64,000 nt of DNA from the NCBI GenBank assembly GCA_965649205.1, contig CBFGJV010000002.1, forward strand, positions 32,001 to 96,000, read 5' to 3'. The stretch comes from a candidate division WOR-3 bacterium. GTDB taxonomy: Bacteria; Hydrothermota; Tepidihabitantia; Tepidihabitantales; Tepidihabitantaceae. Shown here piece after piece: positions 1-12,673 of this stretch (positions are counted from its first letter, which is position 1; every line of letters starts with the position of its first letter). The notes under the pieces are model-generated. The model had not been told where the DNA came from. It was given only the letters and a program-made list of their open reading frames with translations, and did no database searches. The position numbers were made by a program, and so were the translations under genes.

Positions 1-330
1 ATAACTCTCGCCGACACGATAGCGCCACTCAAAACTGAAATAGTAACGGTGAACGGTTCGAAGATGCTTAAAATCAGTGGCAACGCACCGGACAAAGTTA
101 ACTGGCTAGGCATTTCTTTCTACAAGGAGAAATACGTTGATGCGGTGCTGGACGGCGAGTACCAGATGCTTTCCCTCCCCCGCGGCAGGTTTTCGCAGAC
201 CATTCCCATACCTAAGGGTTACGAAACCGGCTCCTACGAAGTTGCGGTGTGGCAGAAGGTTATTTCCCGGAAGCGGGTATTCCGGCTGGGTACTCAGCTG
301 GCATACAAAGAAGGCAAGATTGGAGAGTAA
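1..330 (+). CDS. Hypothetical protein, 5'-truncated by the window edge; first visible gene of the PqqD/ATP-grasp operon
   Basis: Frame 1 is open from base 1 (ITLADTIAPLKTEIVTVNGSK...) to TAA at 328-330; the next gene starts 3 nt later. Confidence 0.6.
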   Translation: MTLADTIAPLKTEIVTVNGSKMLKISGNAPDKVNWLGISFYKEKYVDAVLDGEYQMLSLPRGRFSQTIPIPKGYETGSYEVAVWQKVISRKRVFRLGTQLAYKEGKIGE

Positions 331-333
331 AAC

Positions 334-591
334 GTGGCACAGAGACAATCAAAATTGAAGAGTTTGTATTTGTCCGATAGTGGTTTCTTGTTCGATCCCT
401 ACACCGGTCTGACCTATGGTTTGAACGAGACCGGGGCGACCATTCTGCGGTGGTTGCGTGAGGGACTGGACAAGAGTTCGGTTGCGAAGAAGTTGACCGA
501 AGAGTTCGACGTACCGCTAGAAACCGCCCAAGCGGATGTTGAGGAGTTCTACGACCGGTTACAGCAACAGGGGCTGCTATGGACAAGATAG
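334..591 (+). CDS. PqqD-family / RiPP recognition element (RRE) protein
   Basis: 85 aa with the PqqD pattern LFDPxTGxxYxLNETGAxIxxxL...L.EEFDV..E.A..DV.EF...L...GLL; GGAG upstream of GTG. Confidence 0.85.
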   Translation: MAQRQSKLKSLYLSDSGFLFDPYTGLTYGLNETGATILRWLREGLDKSSVAKKLTEEFDVPLETAQADVEEFYDRLQQQGLLWTR

Positions 592-1631
592 ATTTTGCCG
601 TTACTGGTCTGCACGCAACGGACAATCCTGCTCCGGGGATAGCGGTAATACGTGCGATTCGTTCAGCGCCGCAGTGGCAGGGTAAGGTCGTGGGCTTGGC
701 ATATGATGCATTGGACACAGGTATTTACGACCCGGAGTTATGCGACCGGGTTTTCTTGATTCCTTATGCGACCGAGGGTGAACGAGCACTTCTGGCCCGG
801 TTGGAATACATCTATAGCGTTCAGCCGTTCTCGGTCTTGATCCCGACGCTCGATGCTGAACTCACCGGTTTCATCCGTCTGCGGCACGAACTTGAGCCTA
901 TGGGCATTCGCATGCTCCTGCCTACTGAGGAACAACTGGGTCTGCGGTCCAAGCAGAGGCTGGGCGATTTTGCCCACAGTCACGGTATACCCTTTCTCGC
1001 GACGCTTACTGTTACCACGCCGGAGATGCTCGCTGACGCGATGGAAAAACTCGGCACGCCAGTAGTAGTGAAGGGTTGTTTCTACGAGGCGCAGGTGTGC
1101 TATACGTTTGAACACGCCCAGACCGCATTTGCTTCTATTGCCGCCCGCTGGGGCCTGCCGGCGCTGTGCCAGGCTCACTTGTCCGGGGAGGAGTATGACG
1201 TATGCGCGCTCGGTGACAAGAAAGGAAAATTAAACGGAGCTGTGGCGATGCGTAAACTAAGACTCACCGACAAGGGCAAGGCTTGGGCAGGAATAACTGT
1301 GTGCGACGAAGAACTGCTTGACTTGACCCGAACAGTGGTTGAGGGACTCAACTGGACTGGGCCGATGGAGATTGAGTTCATTCGCTCCACTGCCGATGGC
1401 CGATTCCACCTGTTTGAGATTAACCCGCGATTTCCGGCTTGGTGTTACCTCACTGCGGGTGCGGGGCTCAATCTGCCTTACCGCTATCTCCAGCTGGCTC
1501 AGGACCGTGAGGTTCAACCCTCATTGGAGTATCGGCCCGGCACTATATTCGTCCGACACGCAACCGATATAATATGTCCGCTCGACATTCTGGAATCTTT
1601 GACTACTAAAGGCGAGGTGAAACGTGGCTAG
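579..1631 (+). CDS. ATP-grasp ligase (carbamoyl-phosphate synthase-like single ATP-grasp)
   Basis: Motifs IPTLDAEL, PVVVKG, GEEYDV, EIEF and FEINPRFP; overlaps the PqqD gene. Confidence 0.85.
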   Translation: MDKIDFAVTGLHATDNPAPGIAVIRAIRSAPQWQGKVVGLAYDALDTGIYDPELCDRVFLIPYATEGERALLARLEYIYSVQPFSVLIPTLDAELTGFIRLRHELEPMGIRMLLPTEEQLGLRSKQRLGDFAHSHGIPFLATLTVTTPEMLADAMEKLGTPVVVKGCFYEAQVCYTFEHAQTAFASIAARWGLPALCQAHLSGEEYDVCALGDKKGKLNGAVAMRKLRLTDKGKAWAGITVCDEELLDLTRTVVEGLNWTGPMEIEFIRSTADGRFHLFEINPRFPAWCYLTAGAGLNLPYRYLQLAQDREVQPSLEYRPGTIFVRHATDIICPLDILESLTTKGEVKRG

Positions 1632-3003
1632 ACAGCAGGAAAAAGTCAGAAAGACTTACAGCAAACCCTCCATTGCGCGGCACACGGTCAGTCTGATGGG
1701 CAAGCCGGGAATGGGCAAGCCTGGACGGGTTCCCGGCATTTCCACCGTAAAGCAGTTTGAGGGCCACCAGGTAGCGGAACTGGTTACCAAGTTTGGCTCA
1801 CCACTCTTTGTGGGTTCAGAACGGATACTGCGCGAACGGTATCAGAAACTGTATCGGGCGTTCTCAACCAGATATCCCAATTTTCAAGTAGCCTGGTCAT
1901 ATAAGACCAATTACCTGAAGGCAGTATGCAGTCTGTACCACAAACTGGGCGCCTGGGCCGAGGTAGTTTCCGGATTTGAGTACGAGTTGGCTCGTCGATT
2001 GGGTCGTCCTGGGCCGGAGATAATCTTCAACGGTCCGTATAAGGACGAGGCTGAACTGGAGCGGGCATTCCGGGACGGCGCCTTAGTGCACGCCGACAAT
2101 CACGATGAGTTGAGTCGTATGGAGATGGTGGCGGGTCGCACAGGTATGGAGCCCCAGATTGGGATTCGGGTTAATCTAGACTGCGGCATGTATCCACCTT
2201 GGAGCCGGTTCGGCTTCAATCTGGAATCTGGCGAGGCGTTCCAAGCCGCGCGCCGTATCAAAAATTCACCCCGGCTGAAACTGGTCGGTTTGCACTGTCA
2301 CATCGGCACGTTCATCCTTGATCCCGAGCTGTATCGCCGGGCCAGCGCTAAACTTGCTAATTTTGCCCGCGCCCTTGAAGCTGAATTGGGAATAGAGGTA
2401 AAATATCTAGACCTCGGCGGCGGGTTCTGCTCCGAGAATACGTTGCACACCCAGTGGTTGCCGGGCACTCAGGCCAATCCGACTATTGACCAGTTTGCTG
2501 AGGCAGTGACCGGTCCCTTGATGGAAATTGACTACCCTCCCGACAAGAGGCCATTGCTTATCACCGAGCCGGGCCGGGCGCTGGTGGACGATGGATTTGT
2601 CCTTATTTCTACTGTCGTAGCAGGGAGGCGCATGCCCGACGGCAGACCCAGTATTGTGATTGACGCAGGCGTGAACATCCTATTTACCTCTTTCTGGTAT
2701 AAGCATGAGGTAGCACCGGACAGCGACAGTAGTTTCATTTCCGAATTGACTGCAGTGTACGGGCCGCTGTGTATGAACATTGACCTGGTTCATCCCGCAG
2801 CCCTTCTGCCTCCTCTTTCTTTGGGAACGCACCTGGTGTTTCGGCATGTTGGCGCGTACAATATGACCCAGTGGATGCAGTTTATTCGGCTGCGACCCGC
2901 GGTAGTGATGGTGATGCAGGACGGCTCGGTTGAGATACTGCGCGAGGCTGAGACCGTCGACTACGTACAGGAACTGGAGCGCGTTCCGGAATTACTCCGG
3001 TGA
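1624..3003 (+). CDS. PLP-dependent fold-type III decarboxylase (diaminopimelate decarboxylase-like) with N-terminal extension
   Basis: YKTN (PLP lysine), EVVSGFE, FNGPYK, HCHIGT, DLGGGF, EPGRAL, GPLCMNID, GAY. Confidence 0.85.
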   Translation: MARQQEKVRKTYSKPSIARHTVSLMGKPGMGKPGRVPGISTVKQFEGHQVAELVTKFGSPLFVGSERILRERYQKLYRAFSTRYPNFQVAWSYKTNYLKAVCSLYHKLGAWAEVVSGFEYELARRLGRPGPEIIFNGPYKDEAELERAFRDGALVHADNHDELSRMEMVAGRTGMEPQIGIRVNLDCGMYPPWSRFGFNLESGEAFQAARRIKNSPRLKLVGLHCHIGTFILDPELYRRASAKLANFARALEAELGIEVKYLDLGGGFCSENTLHTQWLPGTQANPTIDQFAEAVTGPLMEIDYPPDKRPLLITEPGRALVDDGFVLISTVVAGRRMPDGRPSIVIDAGVNILFTSFWYKHEVAPDSDSSFISELTAVYGPLCMNIDLVHPAALLPPLSLGTHLVFRHVGAYNMTQWMQFIRLRPAVVMVMQDGSVEILREAETVDYVQELERVPELLR

Positions 3004-3016
3004 TGCCGTAGTGTCA

Positions 3017-4555
3017 ATGGCGTTGGCGGAAGTATTCCGGCTTGGCCGGCGTCTAGTTCGGGTCACGCTTGTCTCTTACGCCCAAGTACTCTTCTCCAGC
3101 CGGCCCGCTGCGGGGTGTTTCTTTCTTGCCGCTTCTTTTGTCTTTGACCCTTTGGTCGGTGCAACAGGACTGGTAGCAGCCATTTCCGCAAATTTGGCCG
3201 GGCTTGGGCTCTGGCATGACCGGGTTCGCTGGGAACTGGGCCTGGCCGGGTACAACGGGGTTTTACTGGGATTAGCCCTGGGCTTACTTTTGCCGCACAG
3301 CCGCCTCGTGTTTCTTCTGGCAGTTGTCGGCGGAGTAGTCTCTGCCGTGGCCACCGAGAGGCTGTATCATAGCCTCCGGCGCTGGAACTTGCCCGTGCTG
3401 GGCCTGCCTTTTCTTTTCTTTGCGTGGCTGATGTTCGCCGCTGTGCCCGATGGCGCCGTCCCTCGTTCACCCTTGCTTGACCTGCCAGTACCTGGCATCG
3501 CGGCCGAAACACTCAAGGCGTTCGGCGCAACATTTTTTTCTCCTGGTGTTCTGTCCGGCGCTCTCGTTCTGGCTGGCTTGTTTATTGCTTCGCGCATCAG
3601 CTCCGCTGCCGGATTGGCCGGTGCCCTGCTGGCTGTGGTCGTGGGCCTGTTTCGGCCCTCATCCGTGACGTTGTCTCTGAATTTGATAATAACTTCGGTT
3701 GGCCTATCCTTCTTCCTTGCGCCACGCTTGCGGGCCATATGGCAGGTACTTATGGGAATGTTTCTAACACTTGGACTGGTGCTGGTGATGGAACCCGCGG
3801 CTAGAGCAGTACGCTTGCCTTTACTGATATTACCTCTCACTTGTACCCTGTTTCTGTTTCTGCTCCTTGGCCGATGGCCACGCTCGGGCGTGAGGTTAGT
3901 ACCTATCCGATTACTCAGCAATCCGGAGGAACATCTACGCATCTACCGGAATTACGTTCCCGTAGCTCTTCGCCTTCCTTTTTGGGGCACCTGGTATGTG
4001 AGTCAGGGCATACGTGGTAAAGAGACACACAAAGGCCGATTGGCTTATGCGTGGGACTTCCAGGTGCAGGATGAACGCGGCCGTACCTTTCAGACTCCCG
4101 GGTATAGACTGAGCGATTATTACGCATTTGGGCTTCCGGTGTGCGCGCCGGCTCCGGGTCGGGTGGTAGCCGTAGAAAATGAAATACCGGACAATCCGCC
4201 TGGCAAATTAAACAAAGAGAAAAATTGGGGCAACTACGTAGTGATAGAACACAACGCTGTGGAGTATTCAATTCTTGCTCACCTGCAACAGGGGTCGGTA
4301 AAGGTGAAGAAGGGCGACAAAGTGGCCGCGGGCACGGTTATCGGACTGTGCGGCAACTCCGGATATTCCGGCCAGCCGCACTTACACTACCAACTGCAGG
4401 ACGGCCCAATACCAGGTAGTGATACGTTGGCGACGGAATTTCACAATTACTTGGTGCTGGAACGCGGGCAAGAACGTTTCGTGCCCCGCGGCCGGACGCG
4501 AGAGGGAGAAGTGGTTAGGCCAGCATCGCCTTCTGAAATGCGAGCCGCGTTATGA
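3017..4555 (+). CDS. Urea transporter (UT) family membrane domain fused to a C-terminal M23 metallopeptidase
   Basis: About 10 hydrophobic segments with SYAQVLFS and GLAGYNGVLLGL (UT-like); C-terminal TH...AWDF, APAPGRVV, WGNYVVIEH, GNSGYS..PHLHYQ (M23). Start taken at ATG 3017 rather than the ORF-track 2930. Confidence 0.8.
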   Translation: MALAEVFRLGRRLVRVTLVSYAQVLFSSRPAAGCFFLAASFVFDPLVGATGLVAAISANLAGLGLWHDRVRWELGLAGYNGVLLGLALGLLLPHSRLVFLLAVVGGVVSAVATERLYHSLRRWNLPVLGLPFLFFAWLMFAAVPDGAVPRSPLLDLPVPGIAAETLKAFGATFFSPGVLSGALVLAGLFIASRISSAAGLAGALLAVVVGLFRPSSVTLSLNLIITSVGLSFFLAPRLRAIWQVLMGMFLTLGLVLVMEPAARAVRLPLLILPLTCTLFLFLLLGRWPRSGVRLVPIRLLSNPEEHLRIYRNYVPVALRLPFWGTWYVSQGIRGKETHKGRLAYAWDFQVQDERGRTFQTPGYRLSDYYAFGLPVCAPAPGRVVAVENEIPDNPPGKLNKEKNWGNYVVIEHNAVEYSILAHLQQGSVKVKKGDKVAAGTVIGLCGNSGYSGQPHLHYQLQDGPIPGSDTLATEFHNYLVLERGQERFVPRGRTREGEVVRPASPSEMRAAL

Positions 4556-5544
4556 GCCTGCTGATTGTTCTACTGTTTTTTGCGCGGACCGAGTCAGGGG
4601 AACTGAGTTCTGAATACTTGGCTGCTATCAGACGCGCAGACAGTCTGTACTGGGCCGGCCGGTACCAGGCGGCCCTGATTGCTTACGAAACCGCGCAAAA
4701 TATTCTGCCCGACGAACCTGGGCCCCAGGTTGGTATCGGCTGGACTCTGTTGCGCATGTCTGAGTACGCGCGTGCCGAAGAGGTTCTGCGCCGGGTGCTT
4801 GAGCTTCACCCGGACAACGAACAAGCCCGCAGGGGCCTCGCGCTTCTGCCTTTGTTCTACCGCGTCAGGTTGACGGCTACGCTGACCGGCAGTTCTGACG
4901 CGGCGCGCATCCTGGCTGGTTTCCTTGAGTACAACCACCTATTTCGGACAACTTTCACCGTTGGCGTCCAGAACATCTCCTTACGCGGCGGCTGGAACGG
5001 AATGAACGCCGCGCTGGTTGTTTTTCACCGTTTGCGTTATCCCTGGTCTGTTCGGCTCGACGTTTTTCTCTTGGCCTCAACCAGCGACCGTGCTTATCGC
5101 AGATACGTCTACGCGCCTTCCTTAGGATATCGTTGGCGCGAATGGAATACACGCGCCGTTTGCTTCGGCTGGGACCGGCTGGGCACGGTTGGCCTACAAC
5201 TAGACATCCAGCATCCCCTGCCGTTTGGCCTGGACTTCCACGCCACGCCGACGCTTAACCGTTCGGGTGATTCTCTGGGGTGGTTCATTCCCGCCTCGGT
5301 CAGCCGGCAGCTGACGCCCTATCTGCGCACTCAGGCCATGGCCGGCTGGGGCTCCATTGCGGATTACATTGACCTTGATGTACCAGCGCTCTACAACCAG
5401 TGGGAACGCTTCACGGCGACTGCCCGGCTTGGGGCCGATGCTACCATTGTCCGCAGGTTCCGTCTCGCCGCCTTCGTCACTTGGGAGAAATACAGCACTT
5501 CCCATAGTATTTTCCTTTCTTTTGTCCTTTCGGCTCGTTTCTAG
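4552..5544 (+). CDS. Exported TPR protein with probable C-terminal outer-membrane beta-barrel
   Basis: Short hydrophobic N-terminus, TPR-like helices (GRYQAALIAYE...EYARAEEVLRRVLELHPDNEQA), alternating beta strands, terminal Phe; ATGA coupling to the upstream gene. Confidence 0.65.
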   Translation: MSLLIVLLFFARTESGELSSEYLAAIRRADSLYWAGRYQAALIAYETAQNILPDEPGPQVGIGWTLLRMSEYARAEEVLRRVLELHPDNEQARRGLALLPLFYRVRLTATLTGSSDAARILAGFLEYNHLFRTTFTVGVQNISLRGGWNGMNAALVVFHRLRYPWSVRLDVFLLASTSDRAYRRYVYAPSLGYRWREWNTRAVCFGWDRLGTVGLQLDIQHPLPFGLDFHATPTLNRSGDSLGWFIPASVSRQLTPYLRTQAMAGWGSIADYIDLDVPALYNQWERFTATARLGADATIVRRFRLAAFVTWEKYSTSHSIFLSFVLSARF

Positions 5545-5557
5545 TGGGTACGGACTG

Positions 5558-5594
5558 AAAAAAAAGAGGTGTCGCCTGCTCAAAGGCGACACCT
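5558..5594 (-). terminator. Rho-independent terminator between convergent genes
   Basis: Stem AGGTGTCGCCT/AGGCGACACCT with a 6-nt loop, followed by a T8 run on the minus strand. Confidence 0.8.
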
Positions 5595-5612: not shown

Positions 5613-8462
5613 TTAGAACTTCACTACCTTCTGTCGGTAACCAGCCTCGCCTGTTTCCAGACGGATAAAGTATACGCCGGGAGCAACGTTGCGTGTGTTC
5701 CAGAGTAGTTTATGTTGTCCTGCCGGTCTAGCCTCGTCGGTTAGACACTCTACTTCGCGTCCGGCTGCGTCCAGAACCGAGATACGCACCCGGCCAGCTT
5801 TGGTCAGTTGGTAGTTTATTCCTGTCTGGCTAGCAAAAGGATTAGGTTTTACTGCCAGTACGATTTCTTTTGCTTCGGCGGGCGTGCGGGGTCCGGCCAG
5901 ACCTACATTGCGGTCATACCAGGACTGGGCCGAATCGGCGTTCTGGCGAATTTCACTTCCGCTAGTTCCACCAACAAAGGCGATGGCGAAATGCTGACGT
6001 GCGCCAGGTGACAGATTGAAGGGGCCGGAGGAAACGCATATAGACCAGTCGTAGGCTCGGTTGGAATTAGGCTGGCTGATGGTTCCGTTCAGAAACCTCC
6101 ACTTCTGGCCGTCGGTCATACAGGAGTCTGGATAAACATAACGAGCGTGGTCAATTGCGGCTGTCCGAGCGCCGGTGGTGGGAGAAAGTATTTTGACTCC
6201 AACTGAAGGATTGGCACTGGTAGATGGTCGCATGAAGGCAAGTCTGCGGGACACATCGCTGGAGCAGATGTTGGCTGTGGCTGTACCGATGTCAAAGTCC
6301 GCGATTATGCCGGCGTACATGCCGTTGACCGCAGAAGAGCCATTGTTGGTAATGTCGAAAGTCATTACCACGAAGTCATCGTAACCCGGCGAAGCTACTT
6401 GATAACTTTGCTGGGTGACGACTATGCCCTTGGCTGCGGGATGTCCGGCATCAGAATACGAGCCGCGGAAATGCTGGTCTGCGCCATTAGCCGGAGGCAT
6501 GACCGGCCGCAAACTTTCTTGCGGCATCAGGTCTTGATTAGGCGCGCCCGAGGCAGGGCGGCTGAAGAAACGGTCGGCCAGATATGTTTCGCTGTTGCCC
6601 ATGGCAAAGCTGCTGTAGAACAGCTGGCTGGCACCGGTTTTGGGATAACAGAAGCCAGCGCCAGCATCCAGTCCGGGTGGTACATCATAGCCGATAGAAC
6701 CCTGACAGGACACGGTGAGCTTGCAGTAACCGGTGTCATGGGTCATAAGCAGTTCACCCTGTACCGGCGGCTGACCTACTACCAGGCTGAAGGTGGTTGT
6801 GAAGGTGGTCTCATCGCAGACAAGGAAGAGGCTGAAAGGCACGCTTCTGCCTTCCGGACAGTTACCAGCAACAAGCAGACCGAAAAGGTCCCCGCTGTTA
6901 TTTGCACTGTCGCGGCCGGCTATGTTACCGAAGTTTGCGGTGGAATCGGTCAGAACCAGATAGGGATCAGAGGTGCGCAAGGTGCCGCGCACATTCGTCG
7001 CTCCCACAGTGGAGAAGTTACGCAGATATGCGACTAGGTTAGCGTTTTCGCCAGGATCCAGCCTGCCGTTGCCATTTCCGTCATTGATAACGCGCGTACG
7101 GGAAAGAGAAAGCAAGGGTTGGGTAGCAGAGCCGGTGCGGTCCAGTGCGGCTTTGCAGTTGAGTCTGCCCCAGCCGTAATTGTTGTTGGGATAAGGTGCG
7201 CCGCCAGAGGGTCTGTCGGCCCAGTCGGTGAGCAGTACGAAGATTTCGTCGTGGGTGAGGGTAGGTTTTTTCTGTAGGAGCAGAGCGGCTGCGCCGGCCA
7301 CGTGCGGGCAGGCCATGGAAGTTCCATCCATGGTGGTGTAACCGCCACCCCGGGTGGCAGAACGTACACCTGAGCCCGGAGCTGCAATGCTCGGGTTTAT
7401 CAGGTTCCAATCTGACCTTGGCCAGTAACGAGTTTCATTCCAGGGTGACTGATTCAGGGCCGGGCCGCGCGAAGAGAAACTGGAAATAGCGTCGGTGCTG
7501 GTGGTGGAGCCTACGCCTATCATTATGGGATACGATCCCGGCGGGTTGGAAGTATTCGGATTCGGTCCGGAGTTGCCAATGGACGCAACGCAGACAATAC
7601 CCAAACTGCGCAGATTGTTGAAAGCGTTGAACCAGGCAGTAGTTGTTCTATCTCCAGAGCCCCAGGAGTTAGAAATAACCTGAGGTCGACCTGTTCCGGC
7701 CATCCAGTCCAGACAGGCAGAAATCCAGCTTGACTGTCCACTTCCGGAAGAATTGAAAGCCTTGGCGCAGATAAAGGTGGCGCCTGGGGCCACACCGATG
7801 TCATCTACGGCCGGACCAAGACCATCGCCTCCGCAAATGGTGCCCATCGTGTGGGTCCCATGGCCGTTGTCGTCGTAGGGGCTGGCCTGCCCGTTTACAG
7901 CGTCGAACCAACCATTAGTGGAACGCCAGCGGCCTTGGAAAGCCGGATGACTCACTTCTACACCAGTGTCCACATTTCCTACCACGACGCCGGTACCGTC
8001 AATGCCTACGGCCCAGCAGGAGTCGGCTTTCACCTTGCTGATATTCCAGCCGGGTGCGTCCGGCTCGCTGGAAGGTACGGGGTCATCGAGCTGGACGATG
8101 AAATCGTCCATTACATACTCCACGTCCTCACGCGCAGCCAGGGCGCGGATTATATCCGGGGTGGCAGAGAGGGCGATTTTGCTTTCCAGCCAGAAACTGC
8201 GGATATTCGCCGCGTCGGTCTGGGCTAGAAAGGCAAGAATGCCTCGCTGTGCCTCCTGGGCGATACGTTGTAGATACTCAATTTTCTCGTCGTAGGTAGC
8301 ACTCGGTCCGAGCTTGTTCAGGTCAGCCTGCAGAGCGGTTTTGACTACTATGTCAATTTTCTGGTCCGGTTGTGCCGAAGCGAGTATTTGCTCCAGTTCC
8401 GGCACAATCGTCCCGCCGAACGCCATGGCGCATAGCGCCAGGCACACTACTAAATGCCTCAC
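5613..8462 (-). CDS. Secreted S8 (subtilisin-like) serine peptidase with propeptide and T9SS/FlgD-type C-terminal domain
   Basis: Signal peptide; triad motifs VDTG, HGTHTMG, GTSMACPHVAG; C-terminal PNPF...DAAGR...PGVYF; AGGAGG RBS. Confidence 0.9.
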   Translation of the reverse strand: MRHLVVCLALCAMAFGGTIVPELEQILASAQPDQKIDIVVKTALQADLNKLGPSATYDEKIEYLQRIAQEAQRGILAFLAQTDAANIRSFWLESKIALSATPDIIRALAAREDVEYVMDDFIVQLDDPVPSSEPDAPGWNISKVKADSCWAVGIDGTGVVVGNVDTGVEVSHPAFQGRWRSTNGWFDAVNGQASPYDDNGHGTHTMGTICGGDGLGPAVDDIGVAPGATFICAKAFNSSGSGQSSWISACLDWMAGTGRPQVISNSWGSGDRTTTAWFNAFNNLRSLGIVCVASIGNSGPNPNTSNPPGSYPIMIGVGSTTSTDAISSFSSRGPALNQSPWNETRYWPRSDWNLINPSIAAPGSGVRSATRGGGYTTMDGTSMACPHVAGAAALLLQKKPTLTHDEIFVLLTDWADRPSGGAPYPNNNYGWGRLNCKAALDRTGSATQPLLSLSRTRVINDGNGNGRLDPGENANLVAYLRNFSTVGATNVRGTLRTSDPYLVLTDSTANFGNIAGRDSANNSGDLFGLLVAGNCPEGRSVPFSLFLVCDETTFTTTFSLVVGQPPVQGELLMTHDTGYCKLTVSCQGSIGYDVPPGLDAGAGFCYPKTGASQLFYSSFAMGNSETYLADRFFSRPASGAPNQDLMPQESLRPVMPPANGADQHFRGSYSDAGHPAAKGIVVTQQSYQVASPGYDDFVVMTFDITNNGSSAVNGMYAGIIADFDIGTATANICSSDVSRRLAFMRPSTSANPSVGVKILSPTTGARTAAIDHARYVYPDSCMTDGQKWRFLNGTISQPNSNRAYDWSICVSSGPFNLSPGARQHFAIAFVGGTSGSEIRQNADSAQSWYDRNVGLAGPRTPAEAKEIVLAVKPNPFASQTGINYQLTKAGRVRISVLDAAGREVECLTDEARPAGQHKLLWNTRNVAPGVYFIRLETGEAGYRQKVVKF

Positions 8463-9832: not shown

Positions 9833-12673
9833 TCAGCGTAGATACGCCGGGTCGAGACGGGCAGGGTTCCTGAAGATAAGAGCGTCCAGCATTGAACTGT
9901 TTGCGGTAAAGTACAGTTGGCTTGAGGGTATGGGCCTGAGTCCGCGTGCGTAACCAACAGTCACGCTGACTGGCAGGAGATGGGCAAGTATGAGGTCGGT
10001 TCGCAGTTCGAATCCTGCGCCCAGTCTTCCACCAGCCAAGTCTGTTTTCTCCGGTTTCCAACCGTTCCAGACTAGAGCCCAGTCGGCAAACAGGGCCGTA
10101 TTGATATTGCGCAAGAATATCGGAGCGGTAGAAATACCCCGTTCTGGCCAGCAGAGAGGCGTACGCAGCTGGATACCTGCAGAAGCAATGTGGCGACCAG
10201 GTCTGGAAGTAGTAGTGAAGCCACGAACTCCCAGAAGAGTTCCGTCAGGATAAATACTCCAGGAGGTTAGCTGCGAAGAGTCGCCCACGGAGGTGCCTGC
10301 GGCGCAGCGCAGGCGGAGGCTCCAGTTGAGGGGTAAGGGTGCAGGAAGAGCAGAAGAAGAGGGGCGAGAGAAAGATAAGGGTCGGACAAAACCGCTAAGC
10401 CAGAAAAGTGTACGAATGCGGTCGCGTCCACCGAGCATGTGGCGGGATTCCAGGTCGGTGGCAAAGCCGGCAAGGGTACCTTGTGCCGGGGCTACGTCAA
10501 AGCGGTAGGCAAACGCATTGGAAGTGGCAAATTCCAAACGGTAATGTGCAGAAAAAGAGGTGTCGTGTCGGACCGCGGTCGCGAAGTCAAACTGCGAGGA
10601 GCGTCTGTTGGTTAATAAGGGCAGGGTGAGGGAAAATGTCCCGGCTTGGGTCTGGCGGTCGGCTTCCAAAAAGAAGGCAGGCAAGGGGTGGTAGCGGCGA
10701 AGTTCATATCCGCAGAGCAAAAAAGGAGTGCGGTTAAACCGGTAGCCGGCGGCAACGGCGTAACGATGGAGTTGAAGTGCGTCCCAGCCCAAAGTGGAGA
10801 CAGCCAAAGTCCAGGTAGAGTCGTAGGCGGCAAAAGGAAGCCAGAATTTAGGCCAGAGAGAAGGGAAGGGATTGTAGTAATAAAGGCTGGCAGGCTTTTG
10901 AGAACCGGGGGCGGCGAAGTAGTCTGGCCAGTTGGGCAGGTTTGCGGTAGTATCGGCAAAAGCCGTGACCGGTTTCCAAGTTCTGGCGTCAAGGTTGAGC
11001 AGGGCTATGTTGTCTCCACCAGCTGTGTGAGTTACAAGTGCAAGGCGGCGATTGTCTGGAGATACGGCGGGGCTAAATACGCCGTAAGGTACATTCGTGC
11101 AGCGAAGTATTTCCCGGGTTTGCGGCGAGTAGGAGTAGAGGTTGAAGATGCCAGAGCGGTCGGAAACAAAGAACAGGTGAGTGGCGGTGCGGGACCAGAA
11201 AGGCGAAAGGTCCTGTGCCCTGTCTTCCAGAACCAGAGAGTTCCATCCTGATACCAGGTCAATTATTTGAATGTCAGTATATCCGCCGAGCCTGCTTGCG
11301 CAGACGGCCAGTTGTTGTCCGTCTGGAGAAAAACGGGGAGAGGAAAATACGGTATAGTCAGTTGTTTCCGTGAGATTTTTCTTTTCTCCGGAGGCGAGGT
11401 GGTAGAGGATTATGTCCGTCTGCCCGTGCCTGACCGCGACAAACGCCAGGTGCGTCGAATCGGGCGAGAAGTCCGGGTCGCGCGCACGCATGCCCCAGGT
11501 CAGCCGTTTGAGTTCTCCGGTAACCAGATTGAGGGTGTACAAGTCGGAGATGTCAGAGTAGTTTGTAAGTTCGTACTGAGCAAAGGCAAGCAAAGTGCCG
11601 TCAGGGGAAAGGGAAAGATTGCCCGCGACCCGGCCGCGGTGCAATACCCGGCAGTTTCCGGTGGCAAGGTCAACAGCCTTGATGGCGGGGTACTCGTTGC
11701 CGTTGCGAGACACATAATACACTTCCTTGCCGTCCGCTGACCAGAGTGGCGAGGATGTGTATGCTCCTTCGTTTGTCAGCAGGTACAGAGGGGTGAGGGC
11801 TTCATTTTCCAGACGTTGCCTGATTGAGTTGGCGTAGGCTCTGACTTCCTCTTGCCATTCAGACCACCAAGAGAAGAAGCTTCGTCCGAACACACGGCGG
11901 GCAAAGAAGTTGTCGAAAAAGGGCAAACCTTTTGCTCTGGTCAAACTGTACTTATCCCAGATGTCATTTCCGAACTTTTCCGCCAGGTAGAGAGCGAAAA
12001 GACCGCCGTAGAGATAAGGAGAAGTTCCTTGCGGCCACCTTGTGAGCTCGTAGTGGCAGCAGCGGTCAATGGGCAGAAGGGCGTCGGCGTCTGCCGCTGC
12101 CCGAATCATCATATCATATTCAGTGCTATGGGCTCGACCAAATCCGGCAAATCTTGTTTCGGCAAGGACTGCATATCCTTCCAAAAGCCAAATGGGAGAG
12201 AGCGGATTGGTTAGTCCAATGCGGCCGAAAATTGAGCGGGCCACGGCTGGCAGACCCGCTACCATGTCCATCTGCAGAATGTGGGCGTATTCATGGACGA
12301 GTAATGTGCGCAGCCAGTCGGTGTAATTGAGACGCTGGTCCAGAGGAGGGTATGGTAATATGGTAATCGTATTCCCGGGCAGGGGGGCAGCCCAGCCGTT
12401 TGTATAGTCAAAGAAATCGGCAATTACTATTTGCGTTCGGGGTCTGGGATTCCAGCCTATGCTGGTGGTGAGTTGTTCGTGTACTTCTTCCGCGAGGCAG
12501 GCCACGCGAAGGGCAAGGCTTTCGGTTTCGGGGTTGAGCCGGCCGCGAGAGGAAAAATGCACGGCGAAATTCGGGGTTTCCAATGTATACCAGGAAAGAC
12601 CCGGGTCATAGCCCAAGCTGCCCGGCACCTGGCCCGGGAGGAAAAGCACAAAGGCAAGAAAGAACGTCAACAC
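9833..12673 (-). CDS. Omp85-superfamily protein: zinc metallopeptidase-like domain, PD40/TolB beta-propeller and barrel
   Basis: Signal peptide, HEYAH...PIWLLEG, repeated P.(W/F)SPDG, C-terminal VRGF and LGAGFELR. Confidence 0.75.
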   Translation of the reverse strand: MLTFFLAFVLFLPGQVPGSLGYDPGLSWYTLETPNFAVHFSSRGRLNPETESLALRVACLAEEVHEQLTTSIGWNPRPRTQIVIADFFDYTNGWAAPLPGNTITILPYPPLDQRLNYTDWLRTLLVHEYAHILQMDMVAGLPAVARSIFGRIGLTNPLSPIWLLEGYAVLAETRFAGFGRAHSTEYDMMIRAAADADALLPIDRCCHYELTRWPQGTSPYLYGGLFALYLAEKFGNDIWDKYSLTRAKGLPFFDNFFARRVFGRSFFSWWSEWQEEVRAYANSIRQRLENEALTPLYLLTNEGAYTSSPLWSADGKEVYYVSRNGNEYPAIKAVDLATGNCRVLHRGRVAGNLSLSPDGTLLAFAQYELTNYSDISDLYTLNLVTGELKRLTWGMRARDPDFSPDSTHLAFVAVRHGQTDIILYHLASGEKKNLTETTDYTVFSSPRFSPDGQQLAVCASRLGGYTDIQIIDLVSGWNSLVLEDRAQDLSPFWSRTATHLFFVSDRSGIFNLYSYSPQTREILRCTNVPYGVFSPAVSPDNRRLALVTHTAGGDNIALLNLDARTWKPVTAFADTTANLPNWPDYFAAPGSQKPASLYYYNPFPSLWPKFWLPFAAYDSTWTLAVSTLGWDALQLHRYAVAAGYRFNRTPFLLCGYELRRYHPLPAFFLEADRQTQAGTFSLTLPLLTNRRSSQFDFATAVRHDTSFSAHYRLEFATSNAFAYRFDVAPAQGTLAGFATDLESRHMLGGRDRIRTLFWLSGFVRPLSFSRPSSSALPAPLPLNWSLRLRCAAGTSVGDSSQLTSWSIYPDGTLLGVRGFTTTSRPGRHIASAGIQLRTPLCWPERGISTAPIFLRNINTALFADWALVWNGWKPEKTDLAGGRLGAGFELRTDLILAHLLPVSVTVGYARGLRPIPSSQLYFTANSSMLDALIFRNPARLDPAYLR

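Follow-up and report, generated by a model that had tools for sequence, protein, structure and literature searches.

What does a stand-alone recognition domain for peptide leaders bind in an operon that has no precursor peptide gene? The question is raised by six genes at the left end of a 64,000-nucleotide stretch of the genome of a candidate division WOR-3 bacterium (assembly GCA_965649205.1, contig CBFGJV010000002.1, positions 32,001 to 96,000 of the forward strand), to which we refer as the window. Following a cut accessory gene, these encode a PqqD-like recognition element (RRE) of the type that serves peptides synthesized by ribosomes and modified post-translationally (RiPPs), an ATP-grasp ligase, a fold-III pyridoxal phosphate (PLP) decarboxylase, a fusion of a urea transporter (UT) fold to an M23 peptidase domain, and a tetratricopeptide repeat (TPR)-barrel protein. 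The cluster is a real, widespread, and undescribed system, and no described system matches it. Our best reading, to which we give a little less than an even chance, is that an amino acid is loaded, decarboxylated, and released on the N-terminal tail of the decarboxylase itself.

The six plus-strand open reading frames (ORFs) are confirmed, and are spaced in order by a 3 nt gap, a 13-nt overlap, an 8-nt overlap, a 13 nt gap, and a 4-nt overlap. An earlier reading made from the DNA letters alone (the sequence-only reading) had described them as same-strand genes overlapping or 3–13 nt apart, and its domain calls are upheld by Pfam and by model scans. Its supposition that the genes belong together is borne out by their co-occurrence across phyla, both in GTDB genomes and in independent metagenome loci. 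The GTDB loci are the best 80 of at least 596 confirmed stretches (at least 599 matched) in a scan with a 48-sequence ligase alignment, and their titles name Bacteroidota, Ignavibacteria, Myxococcota, Deltaproteobacteria, Gammaproteobacteria, Planctomycetota, and Marinimicrobia. Using profiles built from this set itself, the decarboxylase is present in 79 of the 80 (1 cut), the RRE in 76 (3 cut, and 1 absent with an orthologue elsewhere in that genome), the UT fusion in 68 (11 cut, 1 absent), a small TPR gene in 56 (19 cut, 5 absent), and the barrel in 42 (23 cut, 15 not detected). An RRE orthologue lying apart from the cassette (L181, G272:C113) sits between pyruvate-kinase-like and PHP-family-like genes, as judged by eye. 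In the second set, 80 metagenome loci anchored on the decarboxylase, the ligase is found in 70, the RRE in 64, and the UT fusion in 75, every miss corresponding to a contig end; the barrel is present in 47 and not detected in 4. The core order of RRE, ATP-grasp ligase, decarboxylase, and UT fusion is kept across phyla. The distribution is patchy: of 272 genomes from the window's phylum, 13 have the cassette; it was not found in the single same-genus genome examined, and it occurs in 23/351, 9/301, and 20/301 genomes sampled from three other phylum-level groups.

The decarboxylase (positions 1624–3003, plus strand; Orn_Arg_deC_N, E 3e-33) is FigC/FslC-like. The PLP lysine (Lys94) and Cys383 are present, and the cysteine is followed by methionine (Met384) in 66 of 66 sequences, as in FigC (C354-M355). 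FigC is the best match both by sequence (7KH2, E 2e-61; BtrK gives E 7e-21) and by fold (E 5e-41, TM 0.91 by target), and the FslC model scores 236 with a cut-off of 500. According to the available part of PMC7857480, FigC, SbnH, AcsE, MccE, and BtrK form one clade, whose members except DAPDC and D-ODC decarboxylate conjugates. In a tree of 113 rows, from which representatives shorter than 385 aa, five named rows, and any row whose PLP-Lys motif could not be parsed were left out, the tail-bearing decarboxylases all fall in one weakly supported group (SH-aLRT 85) that includes some tail-less rows. A tail-less decarboxylase with no RRE or ligase nearby is seen in locus L236 only.

Automatic annotation calls these genes diaminopimelate decarboxylase and carbamoyl-phosphate synthase (CPS), which would favor a cluster of ordinary neighbors: LysA in its housekeeping role, an importer of urea, and a peptidase of the cell wall. 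However, the genome holds four fold-III genes, and the one labeled LysA-like by eye is elsewhere (contig C13), after an aspartate-kinase-like ORF and with an acidic residue following the catalytic cysteine. This gene and an ODC-like one branch apart from the tail-bearing group, and the window enzyme scores 204 bits on the TIGR01048 lysA model, below its cut-off of 298. Moreover, no urease alpha was found in the 97.95% complete genome, and the gene order is fixed across phyla, such that this explanation is largely refuted and retains almost no credence; the decarboxylase is distinct from housekeeping LysA, as the sequence-only reading had it. Two further fold-III decarboxylases were also noted by eye, one with a Cys-Thr loop like that of conjugate decarboxylases and adjoining a 318-aa gene of no assigned function (G000:C4:58318–59601, minus strand), the other ODC-like and adjoining a deoxyhypusine-synthase-like gene (C21:20883–23215).

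The ligase (positions 579–1631, plus strand, 350 aa) has a CPS-like fold and matches ATPgrasp_Ter (PF15632, E 1.2e-10) and PRK12767-like models, with no graspetide model among its matches. Six residues (K125, K165, E266, E280, N282, and R284) are invariant in all 48 aligned sequences. Its best PDB match is CPS (E 2e-18), and we therefore considered a route of urea uptake and carboxylation; this was rejected, as the channel has altered urea-binding residues, a urease was looked for without success, and none of the families conserved in the loci is a biotin carrier. The sequence-only reading had likened the ligase and decarboxylase to BtrJ, an ATP-grasp enzyme, and BtrK of the butirosin pathway. 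The logic of ligating and then decarboxylating fits the data, but the closest enzyme is FigC, and BtrK is a distant match. In butirosin synthesis an alanine racemase (AR)-fold enzyme decarboxylates a carrier-bound glutamate (PMC7857480, as far as its available part goes), whereas no acyl carrier protein (ACP) is in the gene set conserved among the 81 loci of our neighbor survey. The rhizoferrin route of FigA/FigC (FslA/FslC), together with SbnH and AcsE, has in FigC the decarboxylase closest by sequence and fold, and shares with the cluster the Cys-Met loop and ligation followed by decarboxylation. It differs in that an ATP-grasp enzyme is used here, with no NIS synthetase gene among the window genes or the conserved families of the 81 loci, and in that an RRE, a leader-like tail, and a channel-amidase are present.

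The tail is where the answer to the opening question appears to lie. The first 40 codons of the decarboxylase gene (positions 1624–1743) encode an N-terminal extension that is predicted to be disordered (AlphaFold pLDDT below 50 for residues 17–35 and above 90 for the enzyme body) and carries a YxxPxI motif (1657–1674) followed by Lys27 (1702–1704), fifteen residues on from Tyr12 (+15). A [YWF]xxPx[ILVF] motif is present in 161 of 161 uncut, parsed decarboxylase tails (3 others being cut and 3 unparsed), and Lys occupies +15 in 160 of these. Among the best 120 decarboxylase homologues, the 117 with an N-terminus have Tyr (115) or Trp (2) at the start of the motif and all have the Pro, and Lys is present in 119 of 119. 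In a census of 204 loci, 202 of which have the decarboxylase, +15 is Lys in all 150 intact tails of M23-type loci and never Arg (9 further tails are cut, and the loci are kin rather than independent); where the hydrolase is absent or cut there are 25 Lys, 2 Thr, 1 Pro, and 1 tail without a motif. The window copy contains a 15-nt tandem duplication (1696–1725) of five codons around the lysine, absent from the 14 closest homologues, such that the distance to the Tyr is preserved by one copy and that to the enzyme body by the other. That the tail tolerates these five codons we count in favor of loading on the tail.

Both YxxP and W/Y/LxxP/L/I are described as RRE recognition sequences in the accessible part of PMC12710340, where the corresponding Trp of StsA is numbered −15; by our own arithmetic, +15 in the decarboxylase tail then corresponds to the first core residue. 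The RRE of the window (positions 334–591, plus strand, 85 aa; PqqD, E 2e-15) is stand-alone, was the sole member of the PqqD family to be found in the genome, and has lasso_PqqD_Strm as its best model (E 1e-13, under the cut-off). A predicted complex of RRE and tail scores 0.50, against 0.02 for the best control, with contact agreement of at least 98% and partner pLDDT of at least 57. The mark it passes was reached by 116 of 157 solved pairs and 2 of 215 mismatched ones, although scores of 0.60 or less comprise 18 of the 157 solved pairs and both of the mismatches. The prediction lends weak support to binding of the tail by the RRE, and since lasso RRE-leader complexes have already been solved, the pass may reflect likeness to these. 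An N-terminal Cys/His-rich segment resembling a small zinc finger is added to the RRE at L239:9627–10010 (minus strand).

No separate precursor has come to light. A tail model run over 177 loci gave 161 matches within decarboxylases and 13 others, all with E values of at least 0.5, and genome-wide only the decarboxylase tail scored (6e-6, the next being 0.42). The sequence-only reading had proposed looking for a precursor upstream of base 1 of the window, and the sequence there contains none; an RRE-type motif is instead on the decarboxylase itself. The cluster thus departs from RiPPs in general in having no separate short precursor gene (a search keyed on the tail motif, in the 177 loci and the genome). 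It resembles lasso systems in the YxxP motif and the lasso-type best RRE model, yet neither a lasso cyclase nor a B2 leader peptidase is among the window genes or the conserved families of the 81 loci. Graspetides differ in their ligase model, which finds no match here, and in their precursor, none with the tail motif having been found; the graspetide survey, in its available part, does not mention a decarboxylase, urea, or M23.

A fused precursor of the classical RiPP kind, in which the tail is modified once, M23 cuts the backbone, and the modified peptide is exported, would account for the leader-like motif and its spacing, and fusions of precursor and enzyme exist in borosins (PMC8429565, in part). 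The borosin core is C-terminal, that part mentions no RRE of the present type, and no methyltransferase is present here. Against a released peptide, the residues after the tail lysine are poorly conserved beyond two positions. We regard this explanation as very unlikely, also in light of the channel and its variant as described below.

The UT-M23 fusion (positions 3017–4555, plus strand, 512 aa) matches UT (PF03253, above cut-off, E 4.2e-39) and Peptidase_M23 (E 4.9e-17), and its N-terminal part has the UT fold (3K3G in Foldseek, E 1e-15). The zinc ligands of M23 are H338, D347, H455, and H457, and the His, Asp, and HxH are kept in 65 of 65 sequences. Urea is recognized in UTs by a Q-T-T-Q set of residues, and UT termini are intracellular (PMC11589576, in its available part). 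In 57 relatives these residues are altered: the first Gln is kept in 43, the first Thr site is Ser in 44 and Thr in 10, the second Thr site is occupied by Ser, Val, Ala, Ile, or Leu, and the second Gln site is Ala in 39, with Gln not among the five commonest residues. In the window copy the Thr sites are occupied by Gly and Ile, the mapping of the second half being partly by eye. Loops on the C-terminal (M23) side have a Lys plus Arg count of 9.0 compared with 2.9 on the other side, a bias of the same sense in 57 of 57, and no helix long enough to span the membrane separates UT from M23. From these features and the intracellular UT termini, M23 is predicted to be cytoplasmic and not a cell-wall enzyme. 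The sequence-only reading had proposed a protease-channel fusion with its own outer-membrane component; the fusion and the TPR-barrel gene are there, but the peptidase is predicted to face inwards. A small caution on topology comes from the C-terminal domain that most relatives carry beyond M23, which has a DUF3108/LolA-like fold likeness below our bar for naming, such folds often being periplasmic.

A variant of the cassette bears on what the hydrolase cuts. In loci of two phylum groups, G272 and G274 (L226–L229, L231–L235, L237, L239, L240, L286, and L291), the RRE comes first and is followed by an intact ligase, in most cases TPR genes, another copy of the ligase, the decarboxylase, and UT-sirtuin. 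A Sir2 domain takes the place of M23 in 11 of 11 scanned, and is a separate adjacent gene in L239; its catalytic motifs are intact in 10 of 10, and the best matches are NAD-dependent protein deacylases. The second ligase copy, beside the decarboxylase, has no catalytic residues in the 8 loci aligned, 4 more being too diverged to score. The loci are kin, and the variant may represent one event. The long TPR proteins of these cassettes are of 830–1180 aa where read. Sirtuins act on acyl-Lys, normally peptide-bound, and do not cut backbones. Replacement of M23 by a sirtuin hence suggests that the channel-bound enzyme likely cuts a Lys-type (acyl-Lys) amide, and the NAD dependence of the replacement supports a cytoplasmic location for M23. 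It likewise argues for a side-chain amide rather than the backbone cut of a fused-precursor RiPP, and a UT pore would moreover be narrow for peptides. Two natural fusions of ATP-grasp ligase and decarboxylase (P0250 and P0393, 871 aa) retain the YxxP motif in the linker, with Arg at +15; a third apparent fusion, P0232, has the appearance of a frameshift artefact and was dropped.

Loading on the tail would combine these parts as follows. The RRE would grip the YxxPxI motif and present the lysine 15 residues on to the ligase, which would link an amino acid to it as an amide through the side-chain carboxyl; Glu, Asp, and aminoadipate are guesses for the amino acid. The tethered decarboxylase would strip the alpha-carboxyl from the tail-bound amino acid, M23, lying in the cytoplasm where the modified UT channel opens inwards, would hydrolyze the amide and regenerate the tail, and the released product would be exported through the TPR and barrel components. 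The peptide- or protein-directed ligation and decarboxylation of the sequence-only reading survives in its logic, which fits the data, but neither a separate precursor nor an ACP is present, and that the ligation is onto a protein is what we infer. We count for this scheme the motif with its fixed lysine, the predicted disorder of the tail, the RRE-tail score, the lack of a free tail-like ORF, the placement of the decarboxylase in the conjugate group, and the natural ligase-decarboxylase fusion. On the side of release, the kept zinc ligands of M23, its predicted inward side, and the M23-sirtuin swap are counted as well.

Several observations weigh against it. The RRE-tail score is no stronger than stated above. 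The window fusion stops after M23, whereas the further C-terminal domain is present in 63 of 65 relatives and in the L103 copy (55% identical); no remnant of it was found in the genome. Among 150 distant decarboxylase representatives only 23 have the motif, with Lys in 12, Arg in 3, Thr in 3, Pro in 2, Ser in 2, and His in 1. In the 14 sirtuin-type tails +15 is Lys in 5 and Arg in 8, with 1 lacking the motif, and these loci retain an intact ligase copy and an intact sirtuin despite the Arg. The tails of L227 and L232 have no Lys anywhere downstream of the motif and cannot therefore be the acyl acceptor there. The strict lysine goes with M23, and the sirtuin form, if it works, on this sequence evidence does so without Lys in most loci. 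An intact ligase accompanies Arg in the P0250 fusion, and in L238 both an RRE and an intact ligase accompany Thr. No substrate clue is common to the neighbors or to the genes inserted in split cassettes. Some inserts between the decarboxylase and UT genes do recur, namely an eIF2B-like gene in L119, L127, and L144 and a sensor with an aminotransferase in L055 and L129 (by eye).

The main and close rival is a role for the tail in docking only, which we consider possible though somewhat less likely than loading. The RRE and YxxP would then clamp ligase and decarboxylase together with the basic +15 residue as a binding finger, free Lys or Orn would be acylated and, in the manner of the rhizoferrin route, decarboxylated to give an N-acyl-diamine, with the channel amidase trimming or releasing the product. 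Lys or Arg is found at +15 in 13 of 13 sirtuin-type tails with the motif, as a charge contact would give, and the ligase-decarboxylase fusion has Arg; FigC, the closest enzyme, acts on a small N-acyl-ornithine, and the keeping of a dead ligase paralogue beside the decarboxylase in the variant shows that structural roles matter. However, the absence of Arg from all 150 M23-type tails is unexpected for a residue that provides charge alone, the fusion still keeps its YxxP motif, and sirtuins normally need a peptide-bound acyl-Lys.

The sirtuin also invites a signaling switch, in which ligase and decarboxylase would write an acyl-Lys mark on the tail or another protein, and the UT fold would sense an amide or amine from outside (via barrel and TPR) and control the fused eraser, M23 or sirtuin. 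Sirtuins, as the match names indicate, are classic erasers, a pore with altered urea-recognition residues may sense rather than conduct, and 19 of the 81 loci have two-component or regulator genes nearby. Nonetheless, a search of the genome found the tail motif in no further protein, nor did the 81 loci show a conserved output gene, and we think a switch improbable.

The TPR-barrel protein (positions 4552–5544, plus strand; Pfam TPR) has a signal-peptide-like start, a YaiO-like outer-membrane barrel, and a terminal Phe, the barrel being YaiO-like by language-model features only (0.95). L103 and L186 have close homologues at the corresponding place; homology to the barrels of distant loci was sought but not shown (hhalign probability of 8% or less, E 0.004–0.33 against 0.11–0.28 for a reversed control, and negative by BLAST). 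The YaiO likeness suggests a cargo that needs its own outer-membrane exit, and on this basis an iterative form of tail loading can be conceived, in which repeated ligation and decarboxylation on the tail lysine would build an unbranched polyamide (poly-GABA or poly-beta-alanine), in effect a nylon of biological origin and a non-sugar polymer, that is cut by the amidase and threaded through a widened UT pore, the TPR scaffold, and the YaiO-like barrel. We put little weight on it. Synthase-dependent polymer export of the PgaA type is similar in that its TPR scaffold and its barrel in the outer membrane come downstream of a channel in the inner membrane and a hydrolase, but here there is no glycosyltransferase, the hydrolase is predicted to be cytoplasmic, and the likeness to YaiO is at the level of features.

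A close parallel to loading on the tail is provided by the pearlins and amino-group carrier proteins (TglA/TmoA; LysW), in which, in the available part of PMC9303977, an amino acid is joined to a carrier through an amide, then modified, and released by a protease (the membrane-bound TmoG) with regeneration of the carrier, and with RRE-containing partners. Among the window genes and conserved neighbors here there is no PEARL or RimK-type ligase and no free carrier gene; the candidate carrier is an enzyme's N-terminal tail, the proposed link is to a lysine side chain and not a C-terminus, and the enzyme of release forms one protein with a UT-fold channel. From the fixed lysine and the M23-sirtuin swap we infer a covalent, amide-linked intermediate that is freed by a peptidase. 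The gene combination was not found in the literature searched, which did not extend to subscription journals or the large data sets of PMC12710340, and the graspetide survey and RRE-Finder do not mention the cluster in the parts available, in agreement with the sequence-only view that no characterized pathway has this architecture.

The first of the six genes is cut by the window edge (positions 1–330, plus strand, being the 3′ end of a 270 aa ORF that starts 482 nt before the window). It encodes two repeats of a small domain and a hydrophobic N-terminus, its product is likely exported, and its MG2 match is weak and under the cut-off. With homologues in 5 of the 81 surveyed loci and more in further locus sets, it is lineage-restricted and outside the core set. 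It recurs with one to three repeats in L008, L027, L029, and L188–L190, and most homologues have a Cys-rich motif that the window copy does not. Upstream, the accessory ORF shares an overlap with the gene for a beta-propeller protein that has a secretion-type tail, this gene being itself preceded by a terminator-like hairpin, and by eye a single run of genes (L001:2925–7944) encodes a GAF/sigma-54 activator, a Ser/Thr kinase with a PEGA-like end, and Kelch-repeat and TPR proteins. A promoter scan was at chance level (4 matches, with 4.2 expected), a plasmid comparison gave no match, and the GC content of the operon is 53–57% compared to 54% for the genome.

At the other end, the hairpin at 5567–5594 at which the sequence-only reading ended the operon is real, folding better than shuffled sequences (z −4.9, 0 of 200 shuffles), but its T-run is on the minus strand. 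By its sequence it is primarily the intrinsic terminator of a convergent subtilase gene, and at most bidirectional. That gene (5613–8462, minus strand) encodes a secreted S8 subtilase with a secretion-type C-terminal tail, and beyond it is a gene (9833–12673, minus strand) for an exported 946-aa protein in which, by eye, a HExxH peptidase-like start is accompanied by TolB-like repeats and perhaps a barrel end.

The cluster is thus a conserved cross-phylum pathway built of parts whose annotations as LysA, carbamoyl-phosphate synthase, and a urea transporter are wrong. Even if the tail serves for docking, our searches turned up no published account of an RRE-leader pair acting as an enzyme clamp or of M23 and a sirtuin replacing each other on one channel. 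If the tail is loaded, as in our best reading, the RRE would deliver an enzyme's own tail as a reusable carrier, M23 would for the first time be seen as a cytoplasmic off-loading amidase, and a UT-fold channel would have a new cargo. It would also explain a group of orphan RREs that have no precursor gene, for which genome miners would do well to seek the leaders on enzymes.

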